64,000 nt of DNA, from IMG/VR virus record IMGVR_UViG_3300034095_000254; one strand, written 5' to 3'. The position numbers were made by a program, and so were the translations under genes. The stretch is from a virus. Below the pieces are notes generated by a model that had not been told where the DNA came from, did not search any database, and saw nothing but the letters and a program-made list of their open reading frames with translations. Shown in pieces: positions 25,024 to 44,920 of this stretch; within the stretch, counting starts at the first letter, position 1, and the number at the start of each line of letters is the position of its first letter.

Positions 25024-25034
25024 ATTATTCTCCA

Positions 25035-25973
25035 TTAAGCAGCAAGATATTTGATAATAACACAACCAGTGCTACCTGCAGCACTTGGATTACCTGCGCC
25101 ACCTCCACTACCTCTAAATGATGCCCCTGCTTGGCCAGCAACAGGGCTAGTGTATGGACCACCACCATTACCACCAACACCAGAGCCACCAGTTCCGTTT
25201 ACACCTGGAGATCCAGTAGCAGTACCACCTGCACCACCGCCAGCATAGAACAGTGGACTTCCAGAAATAGAGTATGCTAATCCTGCACCGCCATTACCAC
25301 CACCACTTGGTGTTCCAGCTTGCCCAGCAGCACCTGCTCCTCCGCCACCACCGCCAGATTCTGGTGAAAGATCAAATCCGTTACCACCTGCGTTACCTTG
25401 TCCTGGAGTTCCTGCGCCACCTGATTGTGTTTGGTCACCACCGCCACCGCCACCAGAGCCACCAGCGTTTCCATTCTGGACATAACCACCCCCACGACCA
25501 CCACCAACTGCAGTGTATCCATTAAAAGTTGTATTATTACCAGAGGCATTTGCAGCACCACCACCTCCAACCACAATTCCATATGATGCAGTTCCAAGTG
25601 TCATAGATGATGAATAAATTAATCCACCTGCTCCTCCACCACCACCCCAAGCATTATTTGGTCCACCTTGTGCACCGCCACCACCACCGCCAGCTACCAT
25701 TAATACTTCACATCCTTTTGTACCAGACAGAACTTGGAAAGTTCCATTATCAGTAAATGTATGAATATTATATGAACCAGAAGTTGTAATTGTACCACCA
25801 GTAGCAACGAACGCACCGATACCAATCCATGTAGAGACTGAGGTATCATAGTATTCAATATAACCAGTTGAACTGTTGGCACGAAGCATTCCAGCAGTTG
25901 GGGTTCCAGGTCGTTGTGCTGTGGTTCCAACTGGAAGTGTTAGTGCGTGTTCACCTAAAATTGTACTTGGCAT
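25035..25973 (-). CDS. Glycine-rich domain protein (putative fibre-tip adhesin), copy 2
   Basis: PVGTTAQRP...GMLR.N; HTF..GTF; EVLMVAGGGGG; polyglycine runs; ends G.VIIKY. Confidence 0.75.
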   Translation of the reverse strand: MPSTILGEHALTLPVGTTAQRPGTPTAGMLRANSSTGYIEYYDTSVSTWIGIGAFVATGGTITTSGSYNIHTFTDNGTFQVLSGTKGCEVLMVAGGGGGGAQGGPNNAWGGGGGAGGLIYSSSMTLGTASYGIVVGGGGAANASGNNTTFNGYTAVGGGRGGGYVQNGNAGGSGGGGGGDQTQSGGAGTPGQGNAGGNGFDLSPESGGGGGGAGAAGQAGTPSGGGNGGAGLAYSISGSPLFYAGGGAGGTATGSPGVNGTGGSGVGGNGGGPYTSPVAGQAGASFRGSGGGAGNPSAAGSTGCVIIKYLAA

Positions 25974-26010
25974 TTGTTATCCTCTAAAATCTTTATTATT
26001 TATTAATGTT

Positions 26011-26424
26011 CTATAATGCTTTATTTTTTTCATCCCAGCTGGTAGTTTCTTCATTCCAAACATAGAAATATCTATGAGTGGTATCAAACCATCCTTCTGG
26101 ACATGCAATTGGTGGTTCCCAGAGACATGTGTCTTCATTGAGAATCCAAGACGCATATGGTTTTGGTGGAATAAAAGCATCTCGCACAAAATCATATGTA
26201 AAACCAATACCTGCGTAATTCTTTCTTAGTGCTTTTGTTTGATCTTCAGATGGAATCTGTCCACCTTCAGGTAATTGAGTATAATGTATACCACCCCTTG
26301 TATTATAAGATGTTTGAATCATCCATCCTGGAGTATCATCAATAAATGTGTCAATAAATTCTTGGTCTGCCACAAGAACTTTGTCTACAATACCATGTTC
26401 GTTTACTTTTGCAAAGTGTGCCAT
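26011..26424 (-). CDS. Partner protein of Gly-rich adhesin (copy 1)
   Basis: MAHFAKV...LRKNYAGIGFTYD..RDAFIPPKPYASWILNEDTCLWEPP. Confidence 0.7.
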   Translation of the reverse strand: MAHFAKVNEHGIVDKVLVADQEFIDTFIDDTPGWMIQTSYNTRGGIHYTQLPEGGQIPSEDQTKALRKNYAGIGFTYDFVRDAFIPPKPYASWILNEDTCLWEPPIACPEGWFDTTHRYFYVWNEETTSWDEKNKAL

Positions 26425-26435
26425 ATTAGTTTCCG

Positions 26436-27419
26436 TTAAGTTGCAGCCACATATTTAATAATGACAATACCAGAACCACCACCAGAAGAATTACCTCCAC
26501 CACCGCCACCACCAGTATTTGCAATTCCAGAAACAGATGGTGCACTAGTATTGGTGTATCCAGCAGTACCCTTACCGCCACCGCCAGTACCGCCACCACC
26601 TCCAGATGTTGGAGATTGATTAGTACCGCCACCACCTCCACCGCCACCTCCGTAGTAAGTTGAAGTACCTGATATAGAATACGCTAGACCAACTCCACCA
26701 GCACCACCACCACTTGGTGTTCCACCTTGCCCAGCTGCACCTGCGCCACCGCCACCGCCAGCAGATTCTGGTGCTGGATTTAAACCATCACCTCCTGAAT
26801 TACCTTGTCCTGGAGTACCAGATCCACCAGCACCTTGTGGCATAGCATAGTCGCCACCACCGCCACCACCAGAACCGCCTGATCTACCTACTGATGCAGC
26901 AACACCTTGTCCACCACCGCCACCGCCAACTGCAGTGTATCCATTGAATGTAGTGGCAGTACCATCGCTACCACTACCACTACCCACACCAGTTGCGCCA
27001 CCACCAACACTCACTGTGTATGTGCCAGTTGAAATTGTCATGGATGATGAATAGAGCACTCCACCTGCACCACCACCGCCAGCCCAAGCACCAGTGTTTG
27101 GATATGGATTACTACCCCACATTCCGCCACCACCACCGCCAGCTACCATTAATACTTCACATCCTTTAGATCCAGAAAGAACTTGGAAACTGCCTGTGGT
27201 TAAAAATGTATGAGTAGTAAATCCTCCGCTTGTTACAACGGATCCGCCTATTGCCGTAAATGCTCCAATACCTAACCAGCTTGAAGATCCAGTATCATAA
27301 TATTCAATATAACCAGTAGTAGAATTTACTCTGATCATTCCAGCAGTGCCAGTTGGTCGCTGAGCAGTAGTTCCGACTGGGAAAGTTAATGCGTGTTCAC
27401 CTAAAATTGTACTTGCCAT
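26436..27419 (-). CDS. Glycine-rich domain protein (putative fibre-tip adhesin), copy 1
   Basis: Paralog of 25035-25973; translationally coupled to the upstream S74 fibre. Confidence 0.75.
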   Translation of the reverse strand: MASTILGEHALTFPVGTTAQRPTGTAGMIRVNSTTGYIEYYDTGSSSWLGIGAFTAIGGSVVTSGGFTTHTFLTTGSFQVLSGSKGCEVLMVAGGGGGGMWGSNPYPNTGAWAGGGGAGGVLYSSSMTISTGTYTVSVGGGATGVGSGSGSDGTATTFNGYTAVGGGGGGQGVAASVGRSGGSGGGGGGDYAMPQGAGGSGTPGQGNSGGDGLNPAPESAGGGGGAGAAGQGGTPSGGGAGGVGLAYSISGTSTYYGGGGGGGGGTNQSPTSGGGGGTGGGGKGTAGYTNTSAPSVSGIANTGGGGGGGNSSGGGSGIVIIKYVAAT

Positions 27420-28318
27420 TATTTACTCTCCAACATTTTTACTTTATCATTTAATTCTTTGATTGCTTCGATTAAAAGAGGAACCAATTTTTCATATTGC
27501 ACTGTTTGATAGTTCTCACCAGAACGAGAGATTTCTGTATTTTCAAACAGCATAATATCAAATGGAGCAGGTTTAACTGCTTCTGGGAGAACTACCTTCA
27601 CATCACCTGCAAGAACACCTACTTGTTTTTCTTTACTAGAATATCCAAATGACTCTGCTAATTGATTTGCATTAAAAGTGACTCCACGAAGAGTCATAAT
27701 TTTATCTAGCGCATTTGGAATAATTTCGATATTCTCTTTTAATCTTTCATCTGAATACCACGAAACAATATCATTAGTGGCACGAATAGATCCAGCAGTT
27801 CCAGAAGCTGCAGTTCCAATACCCAGTGAACCAAATTGTGGATTTGAGGAAGTTGCTAAGTCTTGTGGACCATTAAGAGTAATAACCCCAGAGGTATTAG
27901 TTACTGTAATTCTGTTTGCAGTGCCAGTCAGTGTAGTACTAGTATAAGCACCAGCTGAAGTACCAACCAGTAAACTACCACTAGTAGGTGCAGTAGTAAT
28001 ACCAGTTCCACCAGAAGCGACAGGTAAAGTTCCAGTGGTTAAAGCAGAAGTGCTCGTAGCATAAACTGCTCCACCATTAGTAAAACTCGTTAGCCCAGTA
28101 CCACCTTTAGTCGTGGCAATAGTTGTGGCACTCCAAGTACCAGTCGTAACTGTTCCTAAAGTAACAAGATTAGAGTTACCTGTAAAAGATGCTTCTAATT
28201 TATCAGTGTTTAGATTGATAAAGTTAGTATCAATTTCAGCATTTGTTAGAGGGAGATCTTTCCTAGTGACACCACCTGTGCCAGTAGTTCCCGTTTCTCT
28301 AGTTGTAATCGAAGCCAT
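27419..28318 (-). CDS. Short tail fibre with peptidase S74-like chaperone
   Basis: N-terminal PLTNAEIDTNFINLN; C-terminal YSDERLKENI...YEKLVPLLIEAIKEL. Confidence 0.8.
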   Translation of the reverse strand: MASITTRETGTTGTGGVTRKDLPLTNAEIDTNFINLNTDKLEASFTGNSNLVTLGTVTTGTWSATTIATTKGGTGLTSFTNGGAVYATSTSALTTGTLPVASGGTGITTAPTSGSLLVGTSAGAYTSTTLTGTANRITVTNTSGVITLNGPQDLATSSNPQFGSLGIGTAASGTAGSIRATNDIVSWYSDERLKENIEIIPNALDKIMTLRGVTFNANQLAESFGYSSKEKQVGVLAGDVKVVLPEAVKPAPFDIMLFENTEISRSGENYQTVQYEKLVPLLIEAIKELNDKVKMLESK

Positions 28319-28353
28319 TTATTGTTGTTCCTATGGGTTTTACAATTTATTTA

Positions 28354-29070
28354 TTATTTAGGAGTATTACAATACTGTTCGTAAGTTTGCATATATTCTC
28401 CACTATACTTATTTATAGATGCCTCTAAAATACCTCTAGTTTGAGATTTCCTAGAATCGACATAAAAACGAACCATAATCATGGGTTCATCGCTATAATT
28501 AAAAGCATTATGATAATGATAGCTGTTTAAACAGTATACTTTTCCAGACTCATACGACTCTTCAAATACCTTAATCGGTTTGGTATAGTCTGACCCCCTA
28601 TAATCCATGTAGGTTATAAGACTAAATTTAGATCCTTTAGGCATTACGATTGGAAGATTCCAAACGGATATCCACTCAGGTTGTCCTGCTTCTTTAGCAT
28701 GGCTATGCCACCCTGCAGATCCACCCTTAGAAAACACTTCAATCCTAGCCAATAACTCTCCACCACCAACAGACTGCAAAACGCTATCCAAATACGGACA
28801 TAATTTTATGGCATCTGTTTTAACAAAATTACCATCCCAAGATTCAGCTGGATTAGACTTAACATTACCATCGATACTATACAATGCTATGGAATCCCAT
28901 TTATTCAATTCATCAAGTTCCATAGTTTTATCAAAGGATAATGAACTTCGATATCCTTCTAACTTGTAGGGTAGGTTTTCTATTTCCTGCAGAATTAGAT
29001 TATGGTCAAATTCAATACCTAAAGGTAGGTGTGCGATTTCATTTAACTTATCCAATGTACTCTCCATCAT
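28354..29070 (-). CDS. Asp/Asn beta-hydroxylase-like Fe(II)/2OG-type (cupin-fold) oxygenase
   Basis: W..IALYS, T...KLCPY, ARI....GG..GWHSH and LNSYHYHNAFN...R pattern. Start uncertain (ATG 29070 or 29067, or TTG near 29055). Confidence 0.7.
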   Translation of the reverse strand: MMESTLDKLNEIAHLPLGIEFDHNLILQEIENLPYKLEGYRSSLSFDKTMELDELNKWDSIALYSIDGNVKSNPAESWDGNFVKTDAIKLCPYLDSVLQSVGGGELLARIEVFSKGGSAGWHSHAKEAGQPEWISVWNLPIVMPKGSKFSLITYMDYRGSDYTKPIKVFEESYESGKVYCLNSYHYHNAFNYSDEPMIMVRFYVDSRKSQTRGILEASINKYSGEYMQTYEQYCNTPK

Positions 29071-29761
29071 AAGCATTGACCGCATCTTGAACCAAATCAT
29101 AAACTAACTCATCTCTAAGATCTGCAAAGAAACGAATAGTCAATCGAACCCCATCCTCATCAAAATTAAACACATTGTGATAATGGTAAGCATTAAAGAC
29201 AACTGGAGTTCCAGGGATATAGGTAGACTCATATACCTTTGGGTTATTAATCCCAAAATCCATACCTCTATACTCTTCATTTGCAATCACAGAATATTTA
29301 AACTTATTCGGCATAGTTATAGGTAACTGAATAATCATCATCGTGTCAGGATGTGATAACTCAAATACATGGTTATGCCACCCCATCACAGTTCCTGGAT
29401 GAATCTCTTCAATCCTTGCCAATGCTTTACCACCACCCAGTTTTTCAACTATGTCATAGGTGTATGGGAGATATTCAGACAAACCAGTTTTTTGGAAGTG
29501 TCCCCAGATTCTTTCTAACTCACCTGGACCAGCACCCTCTAAACGATCGCAGAAAATCTCACCATTGTAACTAAACAAAGATAGATTGTTCCACTTACTT
29601 TTCTCGTGGCCATGATTCTCCTGCATTGTTGCAGCATAAGGCATCAATGGAAATGGACACTCACCGATTTCTTGTTCAATCCGTGCAGCATCATAAGTAA
29701 AATTCAACGGTAGATGAGGAATTCTATTTACTTGTTCAACTAACTTTTCTATATTTCTCAT
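29048..29761 (-). CDS. Asp/Asn beta-hydroxylase-like Fe(II)/2OG-type oxygenase
   Basis: WNNLSLFS, ARIEEIHPGTVMGWHNH, QLPITMP and FNAYHYHNVFN...RL; paralog of the downstream ORF. Confidence 0.7.
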   Translation of the reverse strand: MRNIEKLVEQVNRIPHLPLNFTYDAARIEQEIGECPFPLMPYAATMQENHGHEKSKWNNLSLFSYNGEIFCDRLEGAGPGELERIWGHFQKTGLSEYLPYTYDIVEKLGGGKALARIEEIHPGTVMGWHNHVFELSHPDTMMIIQLPITMPNKFKYSVIANEEYRGMDFGINNPKVYESTYIPGTPVVFNAYHYHNVFNFDEDGVRLTIRFFADLRDELVYDLVQDAVNAYDGEYIG

Positions 29762-31640
29762 TAATAAAGTTTTCGTAATATGTTCTTATCTGGTAGGTTT
29801 TATCGTACTTTGGAGAGATCGAATCTCTATATTTATCCAGTGAATCTTTAAACTGTTTAATAATATCATCTGGAACATCAAGTCCCAAGTCTTCACTAAC
29901 AGAACATAAAAACTCAATGTATTCTTGTTCAAATACATAAACGCAAGATTTGTATATGTAGGAAAAATCCACAGATATACCAGTGAAGGGTAAGTTAAAT
30001 TGTTTGTAATCTACAACTTCATTTCTATTGCCATCCATTAGATACTGCATCTGGTCGTTTAAGTTTTTCATTGCCAAAACATAATCGTTGGTAGATGGAG
30101 AAACTATCTTCTCATAAATCTTTCTAAAGATTAGCGAAGGTGTTTTTAACTTACCATTTTCCATATTATGTTTTACAATTAAGTCTGTAAATCCTATCAT
30201 GGAAACATTTTCAAGAATCCAATAATTCATGAAGAAAAATTCAGTAAAGTCTTTTCTTGTAAACCCATTTGCTTCTACCACAAACTCTACATCAGAAATA
30301 AAATTTGGATCAGCAGATATATGGTAATCACCAAAGGTATTGACATCATCGAATGCATAACTATTCATTCTTGATTTACCAATACAGATTTTTTCTGTTT
30401 TGATATTATGTTGTTTAATATAGCTGGGAGAGTAAGCAGGAGAGTCTGGTAAAAATAACCAAAGATATCTCTCTAAATTGTAACCATACTCATACTGAAT
30501 ATCAACCTCAGCATAAAAGTCGTCTCTGGTATATCCAGGTAATCCCATCATAAACTCAAAGTCAGAACGAATACCATATGTATCAAAAAGATACTGAGCA
30601 AACTCAAAATCTTTCTCACGAGGAATATCGGTTCGTTTGATATTCTTGAGGACTTCGTTATTTAAAGTTTGCAAACTAAGTTTGTATCGTTCAACTACTT
30701 TGGCTCTAGCAAGTGGCTCGATAGTTGCCCATCGTCTTTCTTGTTTAGACTTAGTCATACCATATATTTCTACATGGTTTGGTAAACCTGAGTATCCTTT
30801 AATTGTTTCAATATATTTGGAAACATCCTCATCTTCCAGATATATTCCGTAGTTTGCATCAAGGATTTGAATCTGCTCAATACCAATCTGTGGTATCCAA
30901 TCTAAATCTTCTTTGATCATATCCAAAGGTTTACGGATAACCTTACCACCGATCCCACCACCCCACTCGCAGAACACACATTGGTATGGGCAACCACGAG
31001 TCAACTCAATTGGCATAACCAGTGGGACATTTCTTTCCATGGCAATATTTTTACATTCAAACAGAATGTCTTCATTACCAGAAATTAAACTTGAGGGGAA
31101 GTCGAAGTCAATTTTATTTCTAGTTTTACCACGACCAGTTTTATAAACTGCAAAAGAAACTTCTTTCCAATTAATATCACCTTCTACAGATTGGTCAAGA
31201 ATGTCAGTAATAAACCACTCTCCATAACTTGTTGGTTCGCAGATAGCGTCTACAAATTTATGTTTAATAAACCAATCAAGATTATTGTAGGTGATATTAA
31301 GATGTGGTCCACCAAGTAGAATAATACGATTTGGATTTCGTTTCTTCAATTCTTTAGCCACAGCCATAATAGCCATATGACTCCAAAGATAACTGGAGAA
31401 TGCATAAATCTCTGAGTCTTGTTTATCGTAGTAATCTACAATTTGTTCAAATGACCACCCTTCTAAATTAAGGATTGGTTTTTCCCAAATAACTCTATCT
31501 GGATATTTACCATGTTTCGTGTAGTAGTTCTTAAAGTTCAACCAATTGATTGGCAACCTTTGAATTGGAACACGAAGGTCAATATTAAGAAACGAGATTC
31601 TTATGGATTTTTTGAGTTGCTTCAACATAATCTGTTTCAC
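29736..31640 (-). CDS. Cobalamin-binding-type radical SAM enzyme
   Basis: N-terminal AFSSYLWS...IILLGGPH (B12-binding-domain-like), ELTRGCPYQCVFCEWG (CxxxCxxC), DANYG and MMGLPG. Start uncertain. Confidence 0.85.
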   Translation of the reverse strand: MKQIMLKQLKKSIRISFLNIDLRVPIQRLPINWLNFKNYYTKHGKYPDRVIWEKPILNLEGWSFEQIVDYYDKQDSEIYAFSSYLWSHMAIMAVAKELKKRNPNRIILLGGPHLNITYNNLDWFIKHKFVDAICEPTSYGEWFITDILDQSVEGDINWKEVSFAVYKTGRGKTRNKIDFDFPSSLISGNEDILFECKNIAMERNVPLVMPIELTRGCPYQCVFCEWGGGIGGKVIRKPLDMIKEDLDWIPQIGIEQIQILDANYGIYLEDEDVSKYIETIKGYSGLPNHVEIYGMTKSKQERRWATIEPLARAKVVERYKLSLQTLNNEVLKNIKRTDIPREKDFEFAQYLFDTYGIRSDFEFMMGLPGYTRDDFYAEVDIQYEYGYNLERYLWLFLPDSPAYSPSYIKQHNIKTEKICIGKSRMNSYAFDDVNTFGDYHISADPNFISDVEFVVEANGFTRKDFTEFFFMNYWILENVSMIGFTDLIVKHNMENGKLKTPSLIFRKIYEKIVSPSTNDYVLAMKNLNDQMQYLMDGNRNEVVDYKQFNLPFTGISVDFSYIYKSCVYVFEQEYIEFLCSVSEDLGLDVPDDIIKQFKDSLDKYRDSISPKYDKTYQIRTYYENFINEKYRKVS

Positions 31641-32631
31641 TGTTTATTTTAATAATTCTTGGAGCCAACTGTTTCATATGAACACAGTGCTCTTCAACCA
31701 TATCATGGTGTTTTAAATCTTTAATTGTTTTCTTACACCCATTACAAATTGCAAACATTGGGCAACCAATACATTCATCCTTTAACGAATACAACTCTGG
31801 AGCATTTTGTAGTGGTGTAATAAAGCCACCTTCTTTAACTTCCTTTACAAAGTTAATAGGGTATTCTTTATCATCACCCATCGCTCCACAAGAATAGTAA
31901 TCACCCTCTGGATTTAACGCTCTGATATGATCATCGCAGTTTCTTGCCTGAGGACAAACATTGGCAATATTGTTCAGACGAGTCATCATCTGTTTAGTAT
32001 TAAATTCCCAATGCCAAAGATCTTTCTCGTATACTTCAATATACATCTCATATATTTTACTTAGGCGATATGGTTTGTCCTGTTCACCTGAAGCCATAGC
32101 ATAATTCAATTTACATTGAACATCCATTTTCTTGGCTAACTCTACATGTTTAATTGCATGCTTCTCATTCTCTTCAGAGATAACTGCAATAAAACCTGGA
32201 CGATAACCAATTTCTTTTAGGAATAAATCACTGACATTCCAAAAGTCTTTTTCAGTATAGACTCGGTTCTCGTTAATCTTACGACCAAATCCATATTGAA
32301 AACTTGTGGTGACTCCGACTCTTGGATGTTTGAACAAAGGTGTCCACATCTCTGGTTTCTTATAGAATGCCCAGAGATTAGTAGTTAACCCTATTGTTGT
32401 TTGGAGATTGTGTTCCTCAATATACTCCAGAATTGCAAAATAGTATTCTGGTTTTACCATCAATGGATCGCCACCATTGACGATAATTGTGTTTGTATTT
32501 GGGAATCTTTTTAGAAAGTCAAAAACATGCTGAAGGTTAAGTGTACTTGCTTTGTCTTCTACGAGTTTAGTCGATGAACAAAACGAACACTTAAAGTTAC
32601 ACAGTTCCGTGGGTTTGATTATAAGTTCCAT
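31585..32631 (-). CDS. Radical SAM / SPASM domain enzyme
   Basis: IKPTELCNFKCSFC and NGGDPL; C-terminal C...C...NPEGDYYSC...CIGCPMFAICNGC...C cysteine array. Confidence 0.9.
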   Translation of the reverse strand: MELIIKPTELCNFKCSFCSSTKLVEDKASTLNLQHVFDFLKRFPNTNTIIVNGGDPLMVKPEYYFAILEYIEEHNLQTTIGLTTNLWAFYKKPEMWTPLFKHPRVGVTTSFQYGFGRKINENRVYTEKDFWNVSDLFLKEIGYRPGFIAVISEENEKHAIKHVELAKKMDVQCKLNYAMASGEQDKPYRLSKIYEMYIEVYEKDLWHWEFNTKQMMTRLNNIANVCPQARNCDDHIRALNPEGDYYSCGAMGDDKEYPINFVKEVKEGGFITPLQNAPELYSLKDECIGCPMFAICNGCKKTIKDLKHHDMVEEHCVHMKQLAPRIIKINSETDYVEATQKIHKNLVS

Positions 32632-33583
32632 TTTTCACTTTATACTTATTAAGCCATGCTGTATTATTTTGGTTCTTTAGAATCGTGTTCCAGAAAATGG
32701 GATTAACGGAATCAAAGTTAGAGTAGTTCGGGAATAATAATTGAAATTGTATAGCAATCTCAGGATTTAGTAAACGAGTTCTAATAAACTCAGTCTTAGT
32801 CATGGTTAAAACAGGATCTAGAATATCTTGATATTCTTCACTATTATTAACTATTGTAAAAAAGTGTTTATGATAATCAAATCCAAATTTATCTTTAACT
32901 ATTGGTACAACAGTATTTGGTAGAAACTCATCAACTTTAAACTGATTAAGATATTGCTCTAGATAAGCATCACTAGTCAAATGTTCTATGGTAAACTCTG
33001 AATCAGACATAATAGCTGGAAGAGATTGTTCAGCATACTTTACCCAAAAGCCTGGAGAGCCATCGTACATTTCGTTTACACGATCCGTACAAAAATCTAA
33101 TGCTTCTTCGTCACCTCTAACTGAGTTTGCAAAAGCAATTTCAACTCTGGTATATGTTAGCGTAGATGAAAATGTAGATGCAGTATCAGTAGTCTTTAAA
33201 GTTTTTGGTAATTCAACAAACTCAACATCTCTATTTGTGAATGTTCCAATTCTGTAATTTTCTTTTATTCTATCAAATGAATATAACTCTTTAACTGCAG
33301 TAGTTTCTAAAACACCATTAAAGAAGTATGAGTAAACATACATAAAATTATTGGTATCACAATAAATTACAGTTTTTGTATTCGAGTGATCTTGATGAAT
33401 CTCATTAAATAGTTCGTCAAGTTTAGTATCATCGATCGTTTCATATGAATGTAAAATATCATATGTAAGATGAACCATGGAATCGCTGGATAGTTTTGGG
33501 TGTGAACCTATCCAAACTTGTTTGCTCTTTTCAAGAATACTATTTGTAGTTGATAGGTAACAGTTGTCGAATAGGTATATCAT
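32597..33583 (-). CDS. Hypothetical protein of the rSAM cluster (paralog A)
   Basis: 328-aa ORF overlapping both neighbours; MIYLFDNCYL and KTVIYCD. Confidence 0.7.
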   Translation of the reverse strand: MIYLFDNCYLSTTNSILEKSKQVWIGSHPKLSSDSMVHLTYDILHSYETIDDTKLDELFNEIHQDHSNTKTVIYCDTNNFMYVYSYFFNGVLETTAVKELYSFDRIKENYRIGTFTNRDVEFVELPKTLKTTDTASTFSSTLTYTRVEIAFANSVRGDEEALDFCTDRVNEMYDGSPGFWVKYAEQSLPAIMSDSEFTIEHLTSDAYLEQYLNQFKVDEFLPNTVVPIVKDKFGFDYHKHFFTIVNNSEEYQDILDPVLTMTKTEFIRTRLLNPEIAIQFQLLFPNYSNFDSVNPIFWNTILKNQNNTAWLNKYKVKNGTYNQTHGTV

Positions 33584-34461
33584 GCTATTAAACCCAAATT
33601 TGTAATTTTTGATTGTGGTAATTTAAGTAGCCATCTAAGCAACCAAGTGTCTACTTTATCACTGGATAGTAGTAATAAAAATTTTGGATCATTTATTAAT
33701 TCTTCAGTAACACCATTTTCAAAGAACTGCACAATTAAAGAATCTGTAAATATTGATCTATCTTTTCTCATTTCCATGTATAAATCTTTCATGGAAATAA
33801 CTGTTCTAAATTCTTGGTTAAATGGATCTGTTGCCCAACCATCTTCTTTTCTAGATAGGTAACATTGTCTTGCATCACCAAAAAATGAATATACATAACG
33901 ATTAATAAGTGATGTTAAAATACCATCATAGTTATTCGGAACACCACATTTTCTGTTGGCTATCTTCCATTCAATTCCTGCATTTTCCCAACTCCAATAC
34001 TCAGACATTGGAAATTTACCAACAGAAGCTGATGAGGTTAAAGCAATAAACTTATCGCCAAGATCGCTAATAATTTGTTTGTTAGTAGAATCAATTAGTT
34101 TTGATTTTATCTTTAAACGAACACCAAACAGTTTTGCAAATTCAAGAAACAAAGATTCGTCAAAATTAAAAATATGAGATTTAATTTTTGCAGTAAAAAA
34201 CTTGACTAGTGTTTCATCGTCACAGTAGATTATAAACTTCTCTTTATTACTGCAGACTGGTTCGACTAGATTACTTTTAATGAAATCTTCATAGGTAGCG
34301 AATCTCCCGAAGCACTGCTTAACTGATACATTATTATAGTAAAAACTATTTTCGACTTGAGTACCTAGAATAGCATGTTTCTGCCCAACCACGATATAAT
34401 CAATAGAAGGATCAAACATTGCGTCTGGGTAGACATAACAGGAATTATAGAGATGTAACAT
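33580..34461 (-). CDS. Hypothetical protein of the rSAM cluster (paralog B)
   Basis: 293-aa ORF; MLHLYNSCYV and KFIIYCD. Confidence 0.7.
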   Translation of the reverse strand: MLHLYNSCYVYPDAMFDPSIDYIVVGQKHAILGTQVENSFYYNNVSVKQCFGRFATYEDFIKSNLVEPVCSNKEKFIIYCDDETLVKFFTAKIKSHIFNFDESLFLEFAKLFGVRLKIKSKLIDSTNKQIISDLGDKFIALTSSASVGKFPMSEYWSWENAGIEWKIANRKCGVPNNYDGILTSLINRYVYSFFGDARQCYLSRKEDGWATDPFNQEFRTVISMKDLYMEMRKDRSIFTDSLIVQFFENGVTEELINDPKFLLLLSSDKVDTWLLRWLLKLPQSKITNLGLIA

Positions 34462-35206
34462 TTGTCTCTTCGTAGATAGATTGAAATTGTTCAGTAGTCA
34501 ATGGTGTTTCTAACATAATTCTTAACAGCGGAAAAATAAAACAATTCGGGGATGTTATAAAGTTAATTAGAGTTTTACCTGAGTAAATCGGTCTATCAAA
34601 ATAGTGATCGAAATACTTTATGTTATCAAAAGATGGAACAGAACTGTAATAGTGGCAGTTGAATGTTATATTATCAAATAAATTTACAAATGTTTTTCCG
34701 ATGTCTTGTTTTTCAGTAACAACATTATTTGTAACAAAGTCACCGAGTTCTTCTTTGTATGCAGTTAGGTTTTTAATTGCATATAATAAAACACCATCTA
34801 ATATTTCAGACAACTGTTTAATTAAATCTGTGTTCTGTTCTACGAATTGTTTCACTTCATCGTTAGATAAAATACATTGTTCTAAAACTGCTTTATCATC
34901 TTCTGATTTATCAACTAAGGATAAATCATAATCTCGAAAATAAAACAAACATTTAATTACAGTTGCTTCTAATTGATTAATATGACAAGATGAGTTATGT
35001 TTAATAAACTCAGAAAGCAGTTCAGATTTTTCTTCAAAAGAAACCATAGACATATTAATATTTAAAGACTCATACTTTAAATTACTCAAATATGTAATAA
35101 AGTTTTTACCTTTAATTTTTGAATTATTATAGTCAATCTCAGGAGATTTAATATCTCCTGTTATAATACTTCTTAAAGTTTCAGAATCAAATGGTATAGT
35201 GTACAT
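34445..35206 (-). CDS. Hypothetical protein of the rSAM cluster
   Basis: Probable start MYTIPFD at 35206, overlapping the stop of the 171-aa gene (TAATG). Confidence 0.65.
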   Translation of the reverse strand: MYTIPFDSETLRSIITGDIKSPEIDYNNSKIKGKNFITYLSNLKYESLNINMSMVSFEEKSELLSEFIKHNSSCHINQLEATVIKCLFYFRDYDLSLVDKSEDDKAVLEQCILSNDEVKQFVEQNTDLIKQLSEILDGVLLYAIKNLTAYKEELGDFVTNNVVTEKQDIGKTFVNLFDNITFNCHYYSSVPSFDNIKYFDHYFDRPIYSGKTLINFITSPNCFIFPLLRIMLETPLTTEQFQSIYEETNVTSL

Positions 35207-35721
35207 TAAATACTTCCGTGGCAAGACCCATGACAATTACTATGGCAGTAAAATTCTTCAATTGTAACAGTATCTGTTCTATTATTATTAATTGCAGTTG
35301 ATAGAGCACTAACAAAATCATCTAAATCAGAAGCATCAATAATATTATCAGAAGCTGGTCCACCAGTCATATCTTTTTTATAACTATCTTGTAAATTAGT
35401 AATGTTTGTTTCGTTGTAATCTGTTCTTGCTCTAACATTACCTTGAATCTGATAATATTTTAATAATTTAACACTTCTAATTCTAGATAATAATACAGCA
35501 TATGCTCTAAAGTTTGTTGTAATGGTAGAAGCAGTAATATTGGTATCTGATATATCCGCTTCTAATGTTTGAGAATAACCACTAGCATTACCACCAGTAA
35601 TATCTGTTTGAAATGGTTGACTGTGAGTTCCCCACACAATACCAGTATTATATGTGCTCGACAACGCTGCCATTGAAGCAACGATGTTTGCTTTTGTTAT
35701 ACTATCGCCAGCTGTTGTCAT
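35206..35721 (-). CDS. 171-aa protein with C-terminal (CHxx)3 tail; candidate substrate of the rSAM/SPASM enzymes
   Basis: Thr/Ser/Asn-rich body like the virion proteins; ends EEFYCHSNCHGSCHGSI; all three Cys residues are in this tail. Confidence 0.75.
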   Translation of the reverse strand: MTTAGDSITKANIVASMAALSSTYNTGIVWGTHSQPFQTDITGGNASGYSQTLEADISDTNITASTITTNFRAYAVLLSRIRSVKLLKYYQIQGNVRARTDYNETNITNLQDSYKKDMTGGPASDNIIDASDLDDFVSALSTAINNNRTDTVTIEEFYCHSNCHGSCHGSI

Positions 35722-36781
35722 TCTTTAACCTTTGCATTAGTGTTTTCGGTGCTGCACAGATATCTCCTTGCCACTTTAATTGGTGACAATCGCTATTACA
35801 GATATCAAATACATCGCATGTATAGCAACGAGGGTCTCTTTCTATCTCGCATGTAATGTTATTTATTCTTCCTCTGGCGGAGAGTAGAGTTCTAATGGGC
35901 TGAGATATATCTCCAAAGCCATTACCAACTGCAGCATTTGGACATCCAGCCACAGTTCCATCGGCATTGATTGTGAAAATTTTCTGCTCACAATCTCTGC
36001 ATCTAACTCCACCATGTATCCCTTTAGTTATAGAGGAATACACACCCTCTAAGAGGACATCTTTATATTTAGGTTTTATTGTCTGATAGGTTTCATGCAT
36101 TCTAACGAACCAGTCATCTTGATCTTTATTTCTAGGAAAAATATGAGTGTTTTCCAGAGCCGAACCATCATGGGTTAGTCGTTCAAACTGTACCCAATTA
36201 ACACCCAGAGTATTGAGCCAGAGAACTAACTCTGTGGTATCCATTTCTAAGAGTTGTTTGTTTAGACTAATATTCAGTGTGATATTAAATCCAGCATCTA
36301 CTACAGTTTGTAGATTCTTTCGCCAGAGTTTTTCTTGTTTATCATTCTCAAAACGAATACCCTTATCCCATGAAGTGCAGAATCCATTCTTTAGAACAGT
36401 TCTGAAAAACTCCATGTGGTCTTCTGTTAGATTGAAGCAGAGATTAGTAGAACACGACCAGTTAAGATTTGGGAATAACTTAGATACTTTATCCCAAACA
36501 TAGTACATGTCATCTAGAGGAGCAAGGAATGGTTCTCCTCCATGAAATGTAATGTTCCCACCATTAAAAGTTGGGCATTCCTCGTGGAGTCGTTCAAACC
36601 ACTCTACAGTATTCTGGGGATTAAAGTATATCTTCTTGCCGTTGACACCATTAGTAAAACAGTGTTGGCAATTTAATTGGCAAGTCTCAGTGGTCTTAAG
36701 ATAGACCACTAAGTCTTTTGGGATTAGTATATCTGAAAGAGATACATTTGTCTTATGAAAGACGATTGGTTGAGATGTCAT
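35702..36781 (-). CDS. Radical SAM / SPASM domain enzyme
   Basis: YLKTTETCQLNCQHC and FHGGEPFL; C-terminal CRDC...INADGTVAGCP...CYTCDVFDICNSDC...C. Confidence 0.9.
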   Translation of the reverse strand: MTSQPIVFHKTNVSLSDILIPKDLVVYLKTTETCQLNCQHCFTNGVNGKKIYFNPQNTVEWFERLHEECPTFNGGNITFHGGEPFLAPLDDMYYVWDKVSKLFPNLNWSCSTNLCFNLTEDHMEFFRTVLKNGFCTSWDKGIRFENDKQEKLWRKNLQTVVDAGFNITLNISLNKQLLEMDTTELVLWLNTLGVNWVQFERLTHDGSALENTHIFPRNKDQDDWFVRMHETYQTIKPKYKDVLLEGVYSSITKGIHGGVRCRDCEQKIFTINADGTVAGCPNAAVGNGFGDISQPIRTLLSARGRINNITCEIERDPRCYTCDVFDICNSDCHQLKWQGDICAAPKTLMQRLKNDNSWR

Positions 36782-36787
36782 AAAGCA

Positions 36788-38002
36788 TTATAAAATCACA
36801 CATTCAACAAGTTTTACATTAGGATCTAAATTAGTTTCAAGAGCAATGGCAAAACTATTTGGATGATCTCCAGCAATGGCACGACCATCTTGATTTGCAA
36901 CAAGAGGTTGTCCTTTGTTGATCGGACCAGCAACTTTAACTGGAACACGACCACGAAGTGCCAATGCCTGTCCTTCTGCTTCATCATTCATAATAAATGC
37001 AGGTTTGGCAGAAACAACACCAAGAACTCTTTGAGCATATTTAAAAGAAGCAGTACCTTCTGCAGAAGAGTCTAACGATACTGTAATAACAGTTCCTGTT
37101 TCATATTCTTGATCAGTTGTATATTTTTCTGCCAAGTCAGCGTAGCGAGCAGAAGTGCTCGTACCGTAAATAACAGCGAATCTATTCGCAGATTGTCCAA
37201 TGTCACCAGATCCGTTAGCACCTTGTTTAACAATGTAATCTACAGTTGGAGTTGAAGACATGTTAATAGTTGGGTTTCCAGAAACTCCATCTCCATTACT
37301 AATAGACATATTAAATCCAGCTGCAATACTTCTTGTTAGTGCTGTACCTGCAGAATCTTTAACAAAGAAGCCATGAGTAGTTACTGCAGCGAGTGCTGTT
37401 AGATTATTAGAGAATGGTTGAATGTCAGAACCAATAACTAAACCTAAGTTTGTTCTTGCTTGTGTTGTCGATGTAGCTGCAGTACCACCAGAGGCAATTG
37501 CCAATGCAGTCGTTAGAGTTACAGATCCGCCAGTAATAGTAACATTATTTGCAGCTTGCGTAGCCATAGTTCCTAAACCGAGCGCAGTTCTAGCTGCAGA
37601 CTCAGTTGTAGCACCAGTACCACCATTATTAATTGCCACAACACCACTAACATTGGTTGCATTACCAGTAACAGTTCCAGTTAGGTTACCAGTAACATTA
37701 CCAGTAACAGCACCAACTAAATTGGCAGTAATAATATTTGCCGAAAAATTACCAGAAGATCTAATGACAACAGAATTTCCACTAGTATCATTGACACTAG
37801 TATTCAAACCATCCAGTAAGTCTGCATCTAAACCAGAACCTGTCCCATCAACTGTTTTAATTTTTGTAAGAACATCTGAAGCAGTATATGTAGCTGTTGC
37901 TAGTTTTGTTCCAACCTCAGTGTTCAAGTTATCAAAGTTAGCGTCTGCCTCTGCAATCGTTAGCGGACTGCCTTTTACACTGCGAAGTACGATTGTTGCC
38001 AT
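36788..38002 (-). CDS. Tail fibre with C-terminal autocleaving chaperone (peptidase G2/IMC-like)
   Basis: N-terminal KGSPLTIAEADANFDNLN; GNVTGNLTG repeats; C-terminal ARYADLAEKY...GVVS.KPAF.MN...ALRGRVPVKV. Confidence 0.78.
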   Translation of the reverse strand: MATIVLRSVKGSPLTIAEADANFDNLNTEVGTKLATATYTASDVLTKIKTVDGTGSGLDADLLDGLNTSVNDTSGNSVVIRSSGNFSANIITANLVGAVTGNVTGNLTGTVTGNATNVSGVVAINNGGTGATTESAARTALGLGTMATQAANNVTITGGSVTLTTALAIASGGTAATSTTQARTNLGLVIGSDIQPFSNNLTALAAVTTHGFFVKDSAGTALTRSIAAGFNMSISNGDGVSGNPTINMSSTPTVDYIVKQGANGSGDIGQSANRFAVIYGTSTSARYADLAEKYTTDQEYETGTVITVSLDSSAEGTASFKYAQRVLGVVSAKPAFIMNDEAEGQALALRGRVPVKVAGPINKGQPLVANQDGRAIAGDHPNSFAIALETNLDPNVKLVECVIL

Positions 38003-38232
38003 TATTGTTTACCCTTAATAAGCATTGCGAGCATCTCTTTTATCTCTGTTACATCTGACTCAATCTTTTCAATTTTATCAGCGTTTTGTTTAATTTGTTG
38101 ATTCAATTCTTTAGCTGCATTTCTTTTTTGCAAATAGTTTTCACGATCTGTTCTATTTGTATTTATCACTGCACCACTGGATAGATCTCTTATAAGACCA
38201 TCCTTGTTTTGTATTTTAACGAAACCTTCCAT
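38002..38232 (-). CDS. Small coiled-coil hypothetical protein
   Basis: LIRDLSSGAVINTN followed by a coiled coil; coupled to both neighbours. Confidence 0.7.
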   Translation of the reverse strand: MEGFVKIQNKDGLIRDLSSGAVINTNRTDRENYLQKRNAAKELNQQIKQNADKIEKIESDVTEIKEMLAMLIKGKQ

Positions 38233-41200
38233 TATACGCAGGCAAGCACACGAAGATCTTTAATTCTTGGCACTTGAGAACTATTAGAAGATTTCATAAC
38301 AATCTTAATTTGCACAGCATCAAACGCAATCAAATCATCCAGTGAATAAGAAGCATCATAGAATTGATCTTCTTGATTAGATGAAGTTATAATAGGAGAA
38401 TCTATTGTCATTTGTGAATATGAAGCATTTCCGAATGGTACATTGGAACCAACAATATTAGTTTTGTACCAAACTTCAATAGAAGCATCAGCTGGAAGAT
38501 TAGCTGCAAATTTAACTCTTAGATAATTAGAGTGCGCTGCTAGATTAACTCTCTTAGTCACATATTTACTATATGTAGAACTTTCTGAAGGAGCATTTTC
38601 AGATGCAAATCTTTCTCTTTGAGTTATTGTTACATTACCAGTAACTGCTGTTGGTGCAGAGTCCAATGTGATAGAAGTACCATCTGCAGCAACCGCTGTA
38701 ATTAACTTAGTGCTTGTTCCAGAACTTGCGCCAGCGATAGTAAGATACTTACCAACAGTGGCAGTTTTAAATGCATCTTGCGCAGGAGCAATGTATGCGG
38801 TATATGTCAAGCCAGTAGGTGTACCAGAAGTAGTAACAATAGCAACATCAGCAGTAGTTTTTAAAGTAAACCCAGTCACAGAAGAACCGCTACCAGTAAT
38901 GGCAGAAACTTGATATTGTGTACCAGTTGCATAACCAGTAATAGTACCAGTACCACCTAGTGTACCAGTGATGGTAATTCTACTACCAACCACTAATGTA
39001 GTTGCAGTACAAGTAAATTGACCAGCAGTGCCAGAGATAGCAACACCAGATAAAGTCGCTGGCGAAGCAACTGCACTAGCTGCAGTTACAATAGTACTAC
39101 CACTAATGCTTATTGTAGGACTGTTACTTATTAATACATTGTAATCTAAAGAAGCCACATTGAGATTAGTCTCTGATGGATTATTAACTTTATTTCCAAT
39201 AGCAATCAAACTTGTTCTATGAGTATCAATAATTGGTGATAATGCGTCATTTGAACTGCTCATAACAATGTTAAATTTAACTGATTTATCACCACTTAAT
39301 CCAAATACAGCATCAGCTTCATTTTGTTCAGAAGCAATCATCTTCGGTATACCGAAATAGTTAGTCTCATTTGCTAACACACCACTATAAACAGTATCTT
39401 GAACATAAGCTACTTGTGAAGTTGAATCAACGGATTTACCAGTAACACCTTGAATTCCAAAACTAATTGGAGTTTCAGAGAAAGATTGTAGTTGAACTAA
39501 TGGTTGAACTGCATCATACTGAATGTGTCTTGTTGCCTTAACTACAGAACCACCACCATATCCAGATGCCGTTGCATTTGAAGCAAGTGTAATACAATAG
39601 CTGTCCAAATCAACATCACTAATTGTATGAGTTGTATTAAATCCTGCAAAAGCAATACCATTGACATCGGCAGAAACACCACTAATAGTTACATAAGAAC
39701 CAGATGGGATACCATGATTGTCTTGCCAGACACGAACTTTAGCAACTCCTGCTCGAGTTTCGAATGGATTAACACCTAATGTAACTTTTGATAAAGCATC
39801 ATTTGTGTACTCAATATTAGAATTAACACCAGTTTCGAACTGACAACGATAAATTGTAAACTTCAAATCTTGAGTTTGATCTGCTGTCCAAGTAGAAGCA
39901 TTTTGAGATTTAAACAATGATCCAAGATATGGTTGTTCAGAAATAGTACGAGCAGTTCCAGGCATTTGATCACCCACTTGAGAAATCCAAACTTTATAGT
40001 TGTTTGAATCTGACGCTAACACGATAGCGTACTCAGTATTTTCCTGAACATAAACTGGGCTAGGGAATGTGAATGTAGTTGGTGTATTATAAGAAGGTAT
40101 ATCTACACCATCTAATAATACTGTTGTCTCAGAAAGATTTATAGATTCTGGTTTTAATGTAACACGGGAGAACGGTAAAACTCGTTTTCCTGGATATCCA
40201 TTAACTACCTCACGAATTTCTAATGTAGCTGGGATTGCAGTATCTTTAGATGCAAAGAATACATCAACTTTAGATAAGAAGCAACCACCCTTTTGTTCGA
40301 TTAAGAATGTTTGTGCAAGAGGATCCCACCAACCAGTATCAGCAACAACTCGGTCAGAAGTTTGAGTAATAACTTGGTTATCCTCAAGTGGTTCTTGCGC
40401 TAGTTCTGCATTACGAACAGCATGCACTGTTCTTTGTTTAGTTTCAAGAATACCCTCTGCACGATAATTTGCTCTTGCACGAGAAGTAAACGCTCCAGTT
40501 GCAGTGGTTACATCTACCAGTTTTAATTCACGACTACCACAACGGAATCTTAATTGTTCATTATTTGGAATATTGAATAGTAAATTTAACTCGCCATTGA
40601 AGTTAGAGATTAAAGTGCTACCAAGTGCCTTAGTTGTAATTGTTCCAACTGTTCCAGATGCAGCAGTAGGATAACCTAATGGATTTGATGCAGTAATTGT
40701 TTCGCTAGCAGAGAATGTACCCTGAATATTAACTACGAATAATGCATATGTGCCAGCGTCTGGGTTGTATTCTTTACCAACAACAACAGCAGTTGCAGCA
40801 GAAGTTCCACCAGTAATAATATCACCACGATTTAAACAAACCTGTGAGTCGCCATCAACTCTTCGTGCAGCTGCAGTAGCATTGGAACCAACATTAGTAT
40901 CAGTATCAAATTTATTATGTGTTATTAATTTTGCTGCAGCAGTTGCTCCAGTAGGAGTATATGCAATCTTAGAAGCTGGTGTGCAATAAGCAGAAATATC
41001 AATACCATCAAAGAATGGATAGAAACGAGTGCTTGGTTTTAATTTTTGAATTTGAACAAGAATGTTTCTTGAACGAATATAAGGAATAGCTGCAGTTGAT
41101 AGAACACGATCGCCAACAACTTGTCTGTCAATTTTCTCAACTAGAGTAGTTTTGATACCTGTTCTGTTTTGTCCAACTTGAGTAGCAGTTTGTTCTACTG

Positions 41201-44200
41201 TAACTTGACGAGCATTATCATGACGCCCAACACCACCAAAACGAGCATTTATTTCAGCAACAGAAATTCTAACTTGTCCGTGTCCAGATGCCCAGTTAGT
41301 ACCTGCTGTATATACTACACGACCAGTGCTAACTGGTGCACCAGTCCACTGTGTTTGCCATGCATTCCATACAGTTCCAAGAACACCAGCTTTCTCAGCA
41401 ATGTTTTTGATTGTGTTAAAGTTTCCTTCAACATCAATCACTAAATCTGGACGACGATCTGTTTCAAACCAATCGTCAGAAGATGGATTAATTTTAACAT
41501 CACCAAGGAATGTAAATACAGCGAATGGATTAATGTTTTCTAAACGAGAAGCATACGCTTGTGTAATAATTGGTAGATGATTAACAACAGGTAATGTAAT
41601 AACATCACCATATAATTTGTAATTTGCATCACCACGATCACTATCAGAAGAGACAGCTTCAATTAAATTTACATTTTGCATTGTGTAGAATGGACGCAGT
41701 TCTGCTCGCTCCATGTCAATTGAATTTAAATAATCAGGCGATGTTGTGTCACCTGTATTATGTCCAGAAAAATTATCTACAATAAAGCCATTTTTAAATC
41801 TGTCTAAACCATTACTGTCTATAACATTTAAAGATTCTGTCTGTTGTTCTAGCAATGATAGTGATGTGTAGTATTCTAGGTTATCAATTCGTTTTTCTAG
41901 TTTACCGATATCACGCATAGTGTATCGTTTATTATCAATTCTATTTACTTGCACATTATTGTTTAATGTACCAAAAGTGTATGGCTCTAATGTTAGATTA
42001 TAGAGAACAAGACCAAGAGTTGGGTCTAATGGCTCTCCTGGATTTAAAGATGACACACCATTAATAGCAAAGAAGGTTCCACCAAAGTCTACAGCAATCT
42101 TAGTTTTTCTTGCTAGGTAGTATTCAAAATCAGTTGTAATATCAATACCACGCTTTGGTAGTAATGTCACAGAAGGATTTGTGCCAGTATATCCTGTCCC
42201 CTCGTCGTCAATCTTTGGTCTAAAGTCAATAACATCTCGTAAAGCAGTACCTTGGAAATAAGGTAGAGCACCATACTGAATAGATGCTGGGTATGAATCT
42301 TTAGTAAAATAATCACCAGTACCGTGAGTGAAATAATCAAATGTCACTTCAACAGGTGCTTCTGGTGGGGCATATGAATTCTTAAGAATTAATCTTGATT
42401 GATCATAGTGAGTAGATCGTTGTCCATCATCCCAGATAAAACGATCTGAAATATCGATAGAGTAAGTAGCACCTGGAGATGCAAATGTACCAGATTTCAT
42501 TTTAACAGAAATCAAACGATATCCATCACCCTTACCGAGTTTTAATTCAGTAACTTGTGCAGTCGCTGCATTGGTAAATGTTTTAGTAGCACTCGCAACT
42601 AATGTTTTTGTTTTTTGAGTTAGTGAAGCACCACTCTTATTAACTGCTGCAATAACAAAAACTGTTTTTGTGTTATATGCGGTATCAACAGGAATTGCTG
42701 CATTTGCAGTGCCAGAAGTAAATGTACCAGTAATTGGAATAATTGCGCCACCTGTGGTAGCATCGGTATCAATAACAGTATAATTGTCGTTATCTGCAGC
42801 AGAAGCAAATGTTCCTGAAGCGGTAGAAATAGAAATAGATCCAGCAGACACGCTACTAGTAAATGTTTCATATACAGTGTAAACTGTATCGCTTATGTCT
42901 TTAATTGCGTAATATGGGAATGGGAATAGTAAAGAAGTGTGCTCTGGCTCATATAATTGAGTTTCAACTCTATCGATAGTAACACCAGTTACTGAAATTG
43001 AAGCATCTACTGTTAAAGAAATCTGGGAGGCAATTGCAGTAACTCTTCGTAGAGCAGTTCCTAAGAAAACATAGTCACCAACTCTAAGATCTGTTTGGAA
43101 AGAAGTTCCAGCACCAGTAATTGTAGTCGATGCCGATGCTGTAGCAGAACCGATTAAACGAACTAATGTTCCAGGACCACCACCAACTGTAAGGATAGTT
43201 CTAGCAGTACTTTCAATATCAGCAGTAAAGTTTAAGTTAGCGTCTGCACTAGATCCAACATGATAAACTGATTTAACATCCCTATTAAAGTCATAGCCAG
43301 ATGCCATCTGGACATCAAACAAACCTAATTTATAGACAGCAGTTTGTGCACCAATAGTTCCATTATGATATTCCATAAAACGAACACGAGCAGTTCCAAC
43401 TGCAGTTCCACTAGTTGGAATTACTCCAACTGAAGATGTCACTCTATTGTACAGAGTGACTTGTTTTAATGTATTGATTCCTGGAACACCATTAACATTA
43501 GTGACTAAAAGATAGTTACCAACTGTGGTAGGAATAACTGCATTATCAACTGCGACAAAATCTCTGGCTTTTTGAACTGTTACATATTCAGTGGCAGGTT
43601 TTTCAATTTCATAACCTTGCACATACGCTTTTCCTGGTTCTAAACCAATTGCCAATTGTGCTTCATTACCCTGTTGTGTTCCAAGATTTTCTGAAGTACC
43701 TGGAGTATAAACACCACGATTGTAGTATGGAGTTTCGTTATATTCCCATTGAATACCTGAAGTACCAACACCTGCAACAGATCCGTCATAAACAAGACCA
43801 GCAGTATGAGTTGGTGGAGTGCTACTAGAAGAAGTACCATTATTCTTTGCGACATATATGTAACCACCATTGGTTACCACATCGCCATTTAAGTACACAC
43901 GACCTGTCGTCCAAGCACCACGATTATTATTTCTATACTCACGAACATCGATTTCAAAATTCTTAACTGTGTAGTTACCTGACTCATCATATGTTCTATG
44001 AGCAAATTCTTTTTCAAGATATGAATATTCTGATTTATCAACTACCTTTTGAGTTTGTCCAGCACTGACACGGAGTAATTCAATGAAATCTGTATCGCTT
44101 GTACTATCTGATGCAAGTTTAGTTAATACGGCATCGATGTAGTAACGATGAGCACCTGGAGCAGCATAGTTAAATGAGTTTTGTGCATTATCAAAAAGAG

Positions 44201-44882: not shown

Positions 44883-44920
44883 TCGTAGTTTTCTCTTTAG
44901 TTGTTTCTAATCTATTTATG

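Follow-up and report, generated by a model that had tools for sequence, protein, structure and literature searches.

The 64,000-nt stretch analysed here (the window; IMG/VR virus record IMGVR_UViG_3300034095_000254) spans late structural genes of a T4-like phage (for the major head protein, scaffold, portal, sheath, terminase and baseplate), and near-identical DNA occurs in lake-water metagenomes from four further studies, no RNA data set being among the sources listed. Between two fibre-type genes, nine open reading frames (ORFs) fill positions 28354-36781 of the minus strand, every neighbouring pair overlapping, in the order that an earlier sequence-only reading of this DNA had described. 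They form a cassette of radical S-adenosylmethionine (rSAM) enzymes, oxygenases and partner proteins around a 171-aa protein, CHX, which ends in Cys-His repeats. We put at roughly two in three the probability that the cassette enzymes modify this tail on a protein of the phage particle, a prediction based on gene linkage, motif constraint and a promoter motif, all computed here, and on the published presence of a CHX homologue in virions. That some modification occurs appears more probable still.

The cassette begins with rSAM1 (35702..36781; all features given with this notation lie on the minus strand), a radical SAM/SPASM enzyme of phrog_1802. It is followed by CHX (35206..35721), a putative virion protein and substrate whose 13 C-terminal residues (35209-35247) comprise three C-H-x-S/N repeats and Ile. 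The partner proteins come next: U1 (34445..35236; phrog_20767), whose true start probably lies 11 codons inward, giving about 252 aa according to gene calls in relatives; U2 (33580..34461); and U3 (32597..33583), a distant paralogue of U2 (U2 profile match, E 1e-8) that is limited to the window lineage among the long loci counted. A second radical SAM/SPASM enzyme, rSAM2 (31585..32631; also phrog_1802), precedes a 634-aa B12-type radical SAM enzyme (29736..31640), a probable methyltransferase, and two AspH-like cupin oxygenases (oxygenase 1, with an H-x-H...H pattern, 29048..29761; oxygenase 2, 28354..29100), paralogues with 35% identity of which several relatives hold only one copy. The 404-aa fibre protein fibUp (36788..38002; PHROG tail-fibre matches) lies upstream and fibDn (27419..28318) downstream. 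Since the C-terminus of fibUp is an intramolecular chaperone domain of the phi29 gp12 / Dpo31 type (PDB profile matches, E 2e-4 to 1e-3) and fibDn carries a Peptidase_S74 chaperone, both flanks are fibre-type genes, and fibUp is a likely structural partner of CHX. The cassette had been described as inserted between tail-fibre genes; the flanks agree with this description, but a recent cargo insertion is ruled out by the identical position of the cassette in all close relatives examined.

CHX is nearly inseparable from rSAM1. The cassette core is shared with Atu_ph07, Phosso, DT01 and the RSL2-like jumbo phages. A search with rSAM1 returned 15 GenBank records, from Atu_ph07, Phosso, RSL2/RSF1/FLC/S13 and DT01, and in all four of the records examined rSAM1 is directly followed by a protein ending in three C-H-x-S repeats and R-x-R-R. 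Stretches matching a DNA pattern for the tail numbered at least 120 in viral sequences and 27 in GTDB, and the motif closes an ORF in them, barring a few GC-rich chance frames. In the reverse test, loci were picked by rSAM1 alone with at least 1.5 kb downstream (n = 106, some contigs being present in both collections). An intact tailed CHX was present in 105 of them, 98 with the strict tail and seven with a His-x-Ser variant without the third Cys, and the remaining locus is cut by the contig end. Enzyme clusters that commonly lack the tail gene, named beforehand as evidence against the proposed decoration of a virion protein, were therefore not what rSAM1-selected loci revealed.

The composition of the cassette varies around a small core. 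Among long loci with an R-x-R-R tail (n = 48), U1 is present in 48, rSAM1-3 in 47, rSAM4 in 44, U2 in 39, a JmjC-like cupin in 38 and R81 in 37; the B12 enzyme occurs in 17 and AspH-like genes in none. In the short-tail clade of the window (n = 8), U1, U2, rSAM2 and the B12 enzyme each occur in 8/8 loci; rSAM3, rSAM4, R81 and the cupin are absent from the window and about 10 kb around the loci (for phrog_1802 also from two 41%-complete contigs), and U3 and the AspH-like genes are found instead. This composition counts as a single event, because all of these loci belong to one clade, and that same clade is the sole basis for connecting the missing genes with the missing R-x-R-R end. The core thus consists of rSAM1, CHX, U1 and rSAM2, with U2 as a conserved partner. 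The B12 enzyme and the AspH-like pair, which the sequence-only reading had counted as central, are lineage accessories, and the window holds a reduced variant which, with two rSAM enzymes and a short tail, is the simplest cassette seen.

Several lineages depart from this layout. In a phage group including L025, L042, L068 and L117, a tandem pair of CHX genes (125-140 aa) comes directly after fibUp, and behind it lie as many as five paralogues from another rSAM family, R71. In L198, L199, L272, L273 and L292, two 520-aa proteins with a flavin-binding-type start (halogenase-like by eye) precede the cassette, accompanied by several 2-oxoglutarate oxygenases; these may be further tailoring enzymes. 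L043 carries five tandem paralogues of about 290 aa that share one N-terminus upstream of rSAM1, and in RSL2 (L022:18033-19182) two dihydrofolate reductase-like genes lie between rSAM3 and rSAM2.

A profile search with CHX yielded 295 clusters at 50% identity, and in 40 homologues the motif columns are invariant except for one Gly. We counted 745 triplets in 245 proteins, which had been collected not through the motif scan but by means of rSAM1, the GenBank loci or the profile of CHX. Position 1 is His in 742 and Tyr in 3; position 2 is variable (Gly in 189/745); position 3 is never Gly (0/745) and is mostly Ser (582), Asn (123) or Ala (27). The Cys preceding His is present in 723 triplets and absent 22 times, and about 20 variants lack the third Cys but retain three His-x-Ser units. 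The conserved unit is therefore His-x-Ser/Asn, with a dispensable third Cys and a His exchanged only for Tyr, and not the (CHxx)3 motif originally proposed. In most lineages the tail terminates in a basic R-x-R-R, and in the window clade in G-S-I/L. A few homologues (P0121-P0269) carry four to seven repeats, one of them with spacer residues between the repeats. The N-terminal 40-70 residues of CHX exist in addition as a fusion to a Gly_rich_2 fibre-type domain; in two split versions (L029:4201-5569 and L290:2555-3935) the N-terminal part is fused to Gly_rich_2 and the tail part is a separate 140-aa gene. The window protein has no Pfam domain and, judged by eye, no apparent signal peptide at its N-terminus. 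Its structure model (predicted local distance difference test score, pLDDT, 66) gave no PDB match in Foldseek, and the top VIA-align rows (TssK, IglD and a Milano baseplate chain; Z 5.4, 5.3 and 4.3) lie in the noise range. Heme binding through CxxCH was rejected, since the residues are spaced as CxxxCH and the protein has no apparent export signal.

Published virion proteomics places a homologue of CHX in phage particles. CHX is homologous to gp170 of Atu_ph07 (E 3e-22), whose computed mass of 31.89 kDa equals the published entry. In the Atu_ph07 virion proteome, gp170 is represented by 8 peptides (35% coverage) and gp176, the homologue of fibUp, by 14 peptides; the cassette enzymes and partners gp165-169, gp171 and gp172 are absent from the list (PMC6102473 Table S5). 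The 171-aa CHX is thus very probably both substrate and virion component, as first suggested from the sequence. Either fibUp or an RSL2 ORF065-type protein, the latter annotated as a virion structural protein, adjoins the cassette upstream in 82 of 105 phage loci. Whether CHX sits on a fibre we regard as evenly balanced; the fibre tip, named as probable in the sequence-only reading, is a conjectural position.

The distribution of promoter motifs sets CHX apart from the enzymes. The T4-type late-promoter motif precedes many structural genes in the window, including one at 44913-44919 before the gene of a large phrog_358 / DUF4815 protein (38232..44882), the first gene of the probable late transcript, which sits ahead of the cassette in T4-like relatives too and is separated from fibUp by a gene for a conserved small protein of 76 aa (38002..38232). 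It had been stated that no promoter separates the cassette from the upstream late genes. This holds for its beginning, since no motif lies within 250 nt upstream of rSAM1 in the window clade (0/21), but not for its interior and end, where one motif occurs within rSAM1 (35860..35867), 144 nt upstream of the CHX start, and tandem motifs lie at the cassette end before fibDn (28348..28361); at least one of the latter was found at the same place in all seven relatives compared. The last 270 nt of rSAM1 contain the motif in 58 of 63 T4-like loci, whereas synonymous shuffles average 20.9 such loci and reach 30 at most, and the motif precedes CHX in 63/65 T4-like loci vs rSAM1 in 14/76. It occupies two non-homologous sites in different clades, and a control stretch had no excess of it. 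The internal motif suggests late production of CHX, in larger amounts than the enzymes. Codon adaptation carries little weight (CHX resembles the structural genes, 0.66, and U1 does likewise), and a sigma-70 promoter scan gave matches at chance level only.

The rSAM enzymes loosely resemble peptide and protein maturases. Both rSAM1 and rSAM2 match phrog_1802 (E about 1e-55) and contain CxxxCxxC plus a C-terminal set of SPASM-type Cys, all of which are intact in 176/176 rSAM1 homologues. This agrees with their description as SPASM enzymes, although TIGR04085 scores remain just under the cut-off of 27 bits (23 bits for rSAM1, 25 bits for rSAM2) and Pfam SPASM matches neither. The best NCBIfam and PDB matches of the rSAM enzymes are mostly maturases such as DarE, DynA, ChlB and anSME; for rSAM2, DynA is the best NCBIfam match with 54 bits vs a cut-off of 450. 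The 634-aa enzyme has a radical SAM domain above the cut-off; its match to the B12-binding family PF02310 is weak (E 3e-5, 24 bits vs 32), and KedN5, its best NCBIfam match (E 4e-35), is far under cut-off. The AspH-like assignment of the oxygenases is tentative: PF05118 matches 5/10 family members weakly (best E 1e-4), with the window proteins themselves below the cut-off, and the ESM Atlas feature score is 0.96. Among the partners, U1 has a confident structure model (pLDDT 87) with no clear match; its interpretation as a partial rSAM barrel (Z 3.2, template modelling score 0.32) received no support from profile comparison and was rejected. U2 matched no family, only unnamed Atlas clusters. 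Neither a transporter nor a leader peptidase is present among the nine genes, as had been noted, and none is conserved in the gene maps of relatives, in which the unlabelled ORFs are annotated only in part.

Based on these observations, we propose the following hypothetical sequence of events, in which (i) CHX would be produced late in infection, raised by its own late promoter; (ii) rSAM1 and/or rSAM2, aided by U1, U2 and U3, would oxidatively modify the C-terminal repeats, each His ring most likely being cross-linked to the beta-carbon of the Ser or Asn at +2 with a change of -2 Da each; (iii) the tail Cys may form further thioethers or bind metal; (iv) CHX or the fibres beside it may receive methyl and hydroxyl groups, differing by lineage, from the B12 enzyme and the oxygenases; and (v) mature CHX would join the particle along with a trimeric fibre folded by a chaperone, presumably as a rigid, protease-resistant binding or docking element. 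The chemistry of step (ii) follows that of triceptide enzymes, which join an aromatic residue i to the C-beta of residue i+2, including His-Ala and His-Arg, and of which ScaB accepts Tyr in place of His (PMC11002830). The permanent absence of Gly from position 3 and the exchange of His for Tyr are the pattern expected of such a link between a ring carbon and C-beta, and we tentatively favour it over other chemistries. Thioethers, inter-chain links or a +8 Da change as in the HXS system discussed below are possible, and the many rSAM paralogues suggest more than one reaction.

A rather unlikely alternative keeps the same substrate and assigns it sulfur chemistry, in which Cys-to-carbon thioethers of the ranthipeptide or sactipeptide type, or inter-chain links, lock a CHX oligomer. 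It would account for the Cys that precedes nearly every His, at every fourth residue, for the lack of Cys upstream of the tail in 377/470 proteins and for the four SPASM-type enzymes in long-tail cassettes, which imply several reactions. However, the variants that drop the third Cys and keep all three His-x-Ser units fit it poorly, and models of the PapB/RumMC type match weakly. The behaviour of gp170 in the gel can be read both ways: this 32 kDa protein is most abundant in the top slice, a position shared with only one other multi-peptide protein below 45 kDa, but its slow migration is also explicable by disulfides or an oligomer resistant to sodium dodecyl sulfate, as the gel buffer is listed without a reducing agent (PMC6102473).

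Two further explanations, both improbable in our view, separate the tail from the particle or from the enzymes. Arrays of Cys and His bind metals, and the tail could be an unmodified metal site or docking tag, with the enzymes acting on fibres, the host surface, nucleotides or a cofactor; phage-encoded rSAM enzymes and oxygenases are reportedly involved in DNA hypermodification. The oxygenase slots, which hold unrelated families in different lineages, are compatible with such a view, but changes of His to Tyr and loss of Cys poorly fit a set of ligands, enzymes and tail gene have stayed linked through many rearrangements across phage and bacterial genomes, and the surroundings of the cassette are late structural genes rather than genes of DNA metabolism. 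Slightly less probable again is a non-structural role in which the body of CHX serves as leader or carrier and the tail is cleaved off as a small peptide that is made on the ribosome and modified after translation (RiPP) or as an HxsA-like product for DNA binding or superinfection exclusion. The terminal position of the tail, its basic end in most lineages and the occurrence of cassettes in non-phage chromosomal regions would suit this role, as would the precedent of HxsA, which is cleaved, modified on its His-x-Ser repeat and binds DNA (PMC13128918). It is difficult to reconcile with the 35% coverage of gp170 in virions, the fusion of the CHX N-terminus to a fibre-type domain, the window lineage lacking the basic end, and gene maps in which no conserved protease or transporter, and no signal peptide on CHX, was recognised.

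Some points weigh against modification of a particle protein itself. Every named maturase model scores far below its cut-off, and no RiPP recognition element (RRE) was recognised: none is fused to rSAM1 or rSAM2, because the cluster motif begins at residue 34 and 11, respectively, and the structure model of U1 gave no RRE match. Folding or metal geometry might instead account for the exclusion of Gly from position 3. The Atu_ph07 preparation was purified by polyethylene glycol only and included some non-structural proteins (PMC6102473), a fibre-type gene was not recognised just upstream in 23/105 phage loci, and one Bdellovibrionota-bin contig (G147) lacks a CHX gene within 20 kb of its enzymes and U1. 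The loci also share ancestry, so that the counts are not independent events, and members are known from their genes and one published virion proteome, the modification being predicted.

In comparison with known systems, the cassette combines familiar elements in an unfamiliar setting. Like HXS (HxsA-D; PMC13128918), it pairs two rSAM enzymes and a dedicated partner with a folded His-x-Ser protein of about 200 aa, and its product is a whole protein instead of a small peptide; with three His-x-Ser/Asn units, CHX matches the repeat type that defines HXS effectors. In contrast to HXS, a periplasmic bacterial defence, the cassette is phage-encoded with a virion-bound homologue, its repeats have a period of four instead of three, contain Cys and lie at the extreme C-terminus, and it has an additional B12 enzyme and oxygenases. 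Membership of HXS was rejected, as no Hxs model matched: rSAM2 reached 33.6 bits with HxsC (TIGR03977; cut-off 267.9), HxsB (TIGR03978) was not among the best 25 matches listed for rSAM1 or rSAM2, HxsD (TIGR03976) was not matched by U1, U2 or U3 at E 0.1, and HxsA was not matched in 95 CHX members, the window protein showing neither a peptidoglycan-binding or other Pfam domain nor, judged by eye, a signal peptide. Triceptide synthases (HaaB, YhhB, ScaB, ChlB) and the dynobactin and darobactin maturases are likewise SPASM enzymes without a fused RRE, act on an aromatic-x-x motif with the beta-carbon at position 3 and tolerate interchange of His and Tyr (PMC11002830), and accessory Fe/2-oxoglutarate hydroxylases such as YhhC occur in their clusters (PMC12186529). 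The cassette shares enzyme type and motif with them but falls into no named cyclophane synthase family, the AmcB, YhhB, DynA and DarE models of NCBIfam all scoring far under cut-off. It also differs in its substrate, a structural protein of 120-310 aa for which the cross-link is predicted here, in the lack of a protease or exporter and in holding 2 to 5 or more rSAM paralogues. With ranthipeptide and sactipeptide maturases (PapB, RumMC, CteB) the cassette has the SPASM enzyme type and the four-residue spacing of Cys in common. It differs in that the Cys-x3-Asp acceptor pattern is absent, no RRE was recognised and the Cys are partly dispensable.

Related cassettes also occur in bacteria. Seventeen of 401 sampled Bdellovibrionota genomes, metagenome bins among which related genomes are not independent, encode rSAM1. 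At the five loci whose genes were inspected individually, the cassette is surrounded by housekeeping genes and no phage head or tail genes were noticed. In 13/14 loci, there is a CHX gene and, next to the cassette, a gene for a 200-aa protein weakly related to the chaperone domain of fibUp (hhalign E 0.003, probability 11%; best PDB match phi29 gp12, E 0.3). S74 fibre genes flank 11/14 loci (one judged by motif only); several of them encode a pilin-like N-terminus, and the five genomes counted contain a total of 1-4 S74 genes each. A quick tree of rSAM1 places one or two Bdellovibrionota groups amid phage sequences and does not give the direction of transfer. The Bdellovibrio MAT fibres are comparable S74-chaperoned, phage-like adhesive fibres, but the S74 proteins flanking the cassettes are short (320-430 aa) with a pilin-like N-terminus, and the parts of the MAT report consulted mention no modifying cassette (PMC10769870). 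Short fibre genes with a pilin N-terminus and S74 flank the cassettes in L334-L361 (G003-G007, G090, G152, G224, G242, G281, G317, G374 and G402), often with a 110-135 aa protein with a twin-arginine-like start and, in two, a GT8-like gene. Contig C4 of G147 (L344-L345) holds about ten rSAM genes, U1, U2, four oxygenases and an unusually long rSAM1 ORF of about 640 aa.

Taken together, hundreds of phages and some predatory bacteria carry such cassette genes beside a His-x-Ser-tailed protein. We found no description of the cassette in the literature outside subscription journals, and no report of rSAM peptide cross-linking in virion assembly; bacterial antibiotics are where such cross-linking is known, joined in 2026 by one antiphage effector. 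This suggests that rSAM maturation of His-x-Ser proteins, in itself known, has a new placement in virion assembly. Some large phages invest up to about 10 kb and up to six iron-sulfur enzymes in a 13-16-residue tail, which indicates strong selection for its function. It is possible, though we hold this more cautiously than modification as such, that large phages build a tailored, rSAM-cross-linked His/Cys peptide into a fibre-associated protein and that Bdellovibrionota do likewise on adhesive fibres. Natural-product chemistry would then be part of virion and fibre assembly, with attachment to prey or host, capture of metal or covalent locking as its use; it would extend phage morphogenesis by a step, supply enzymes that accept folded proteins and explain the rSAM genes given without function in the FLC6 and S13 genome papers. 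Cultured phages carry the cassette, so this proposal is directly testable. Adjacent to fibDn, the window also contains a tandem duplicate pair, each consisting of a Gly-rich fibre-type gene and a small phrog_7759 gene (24664-27419).

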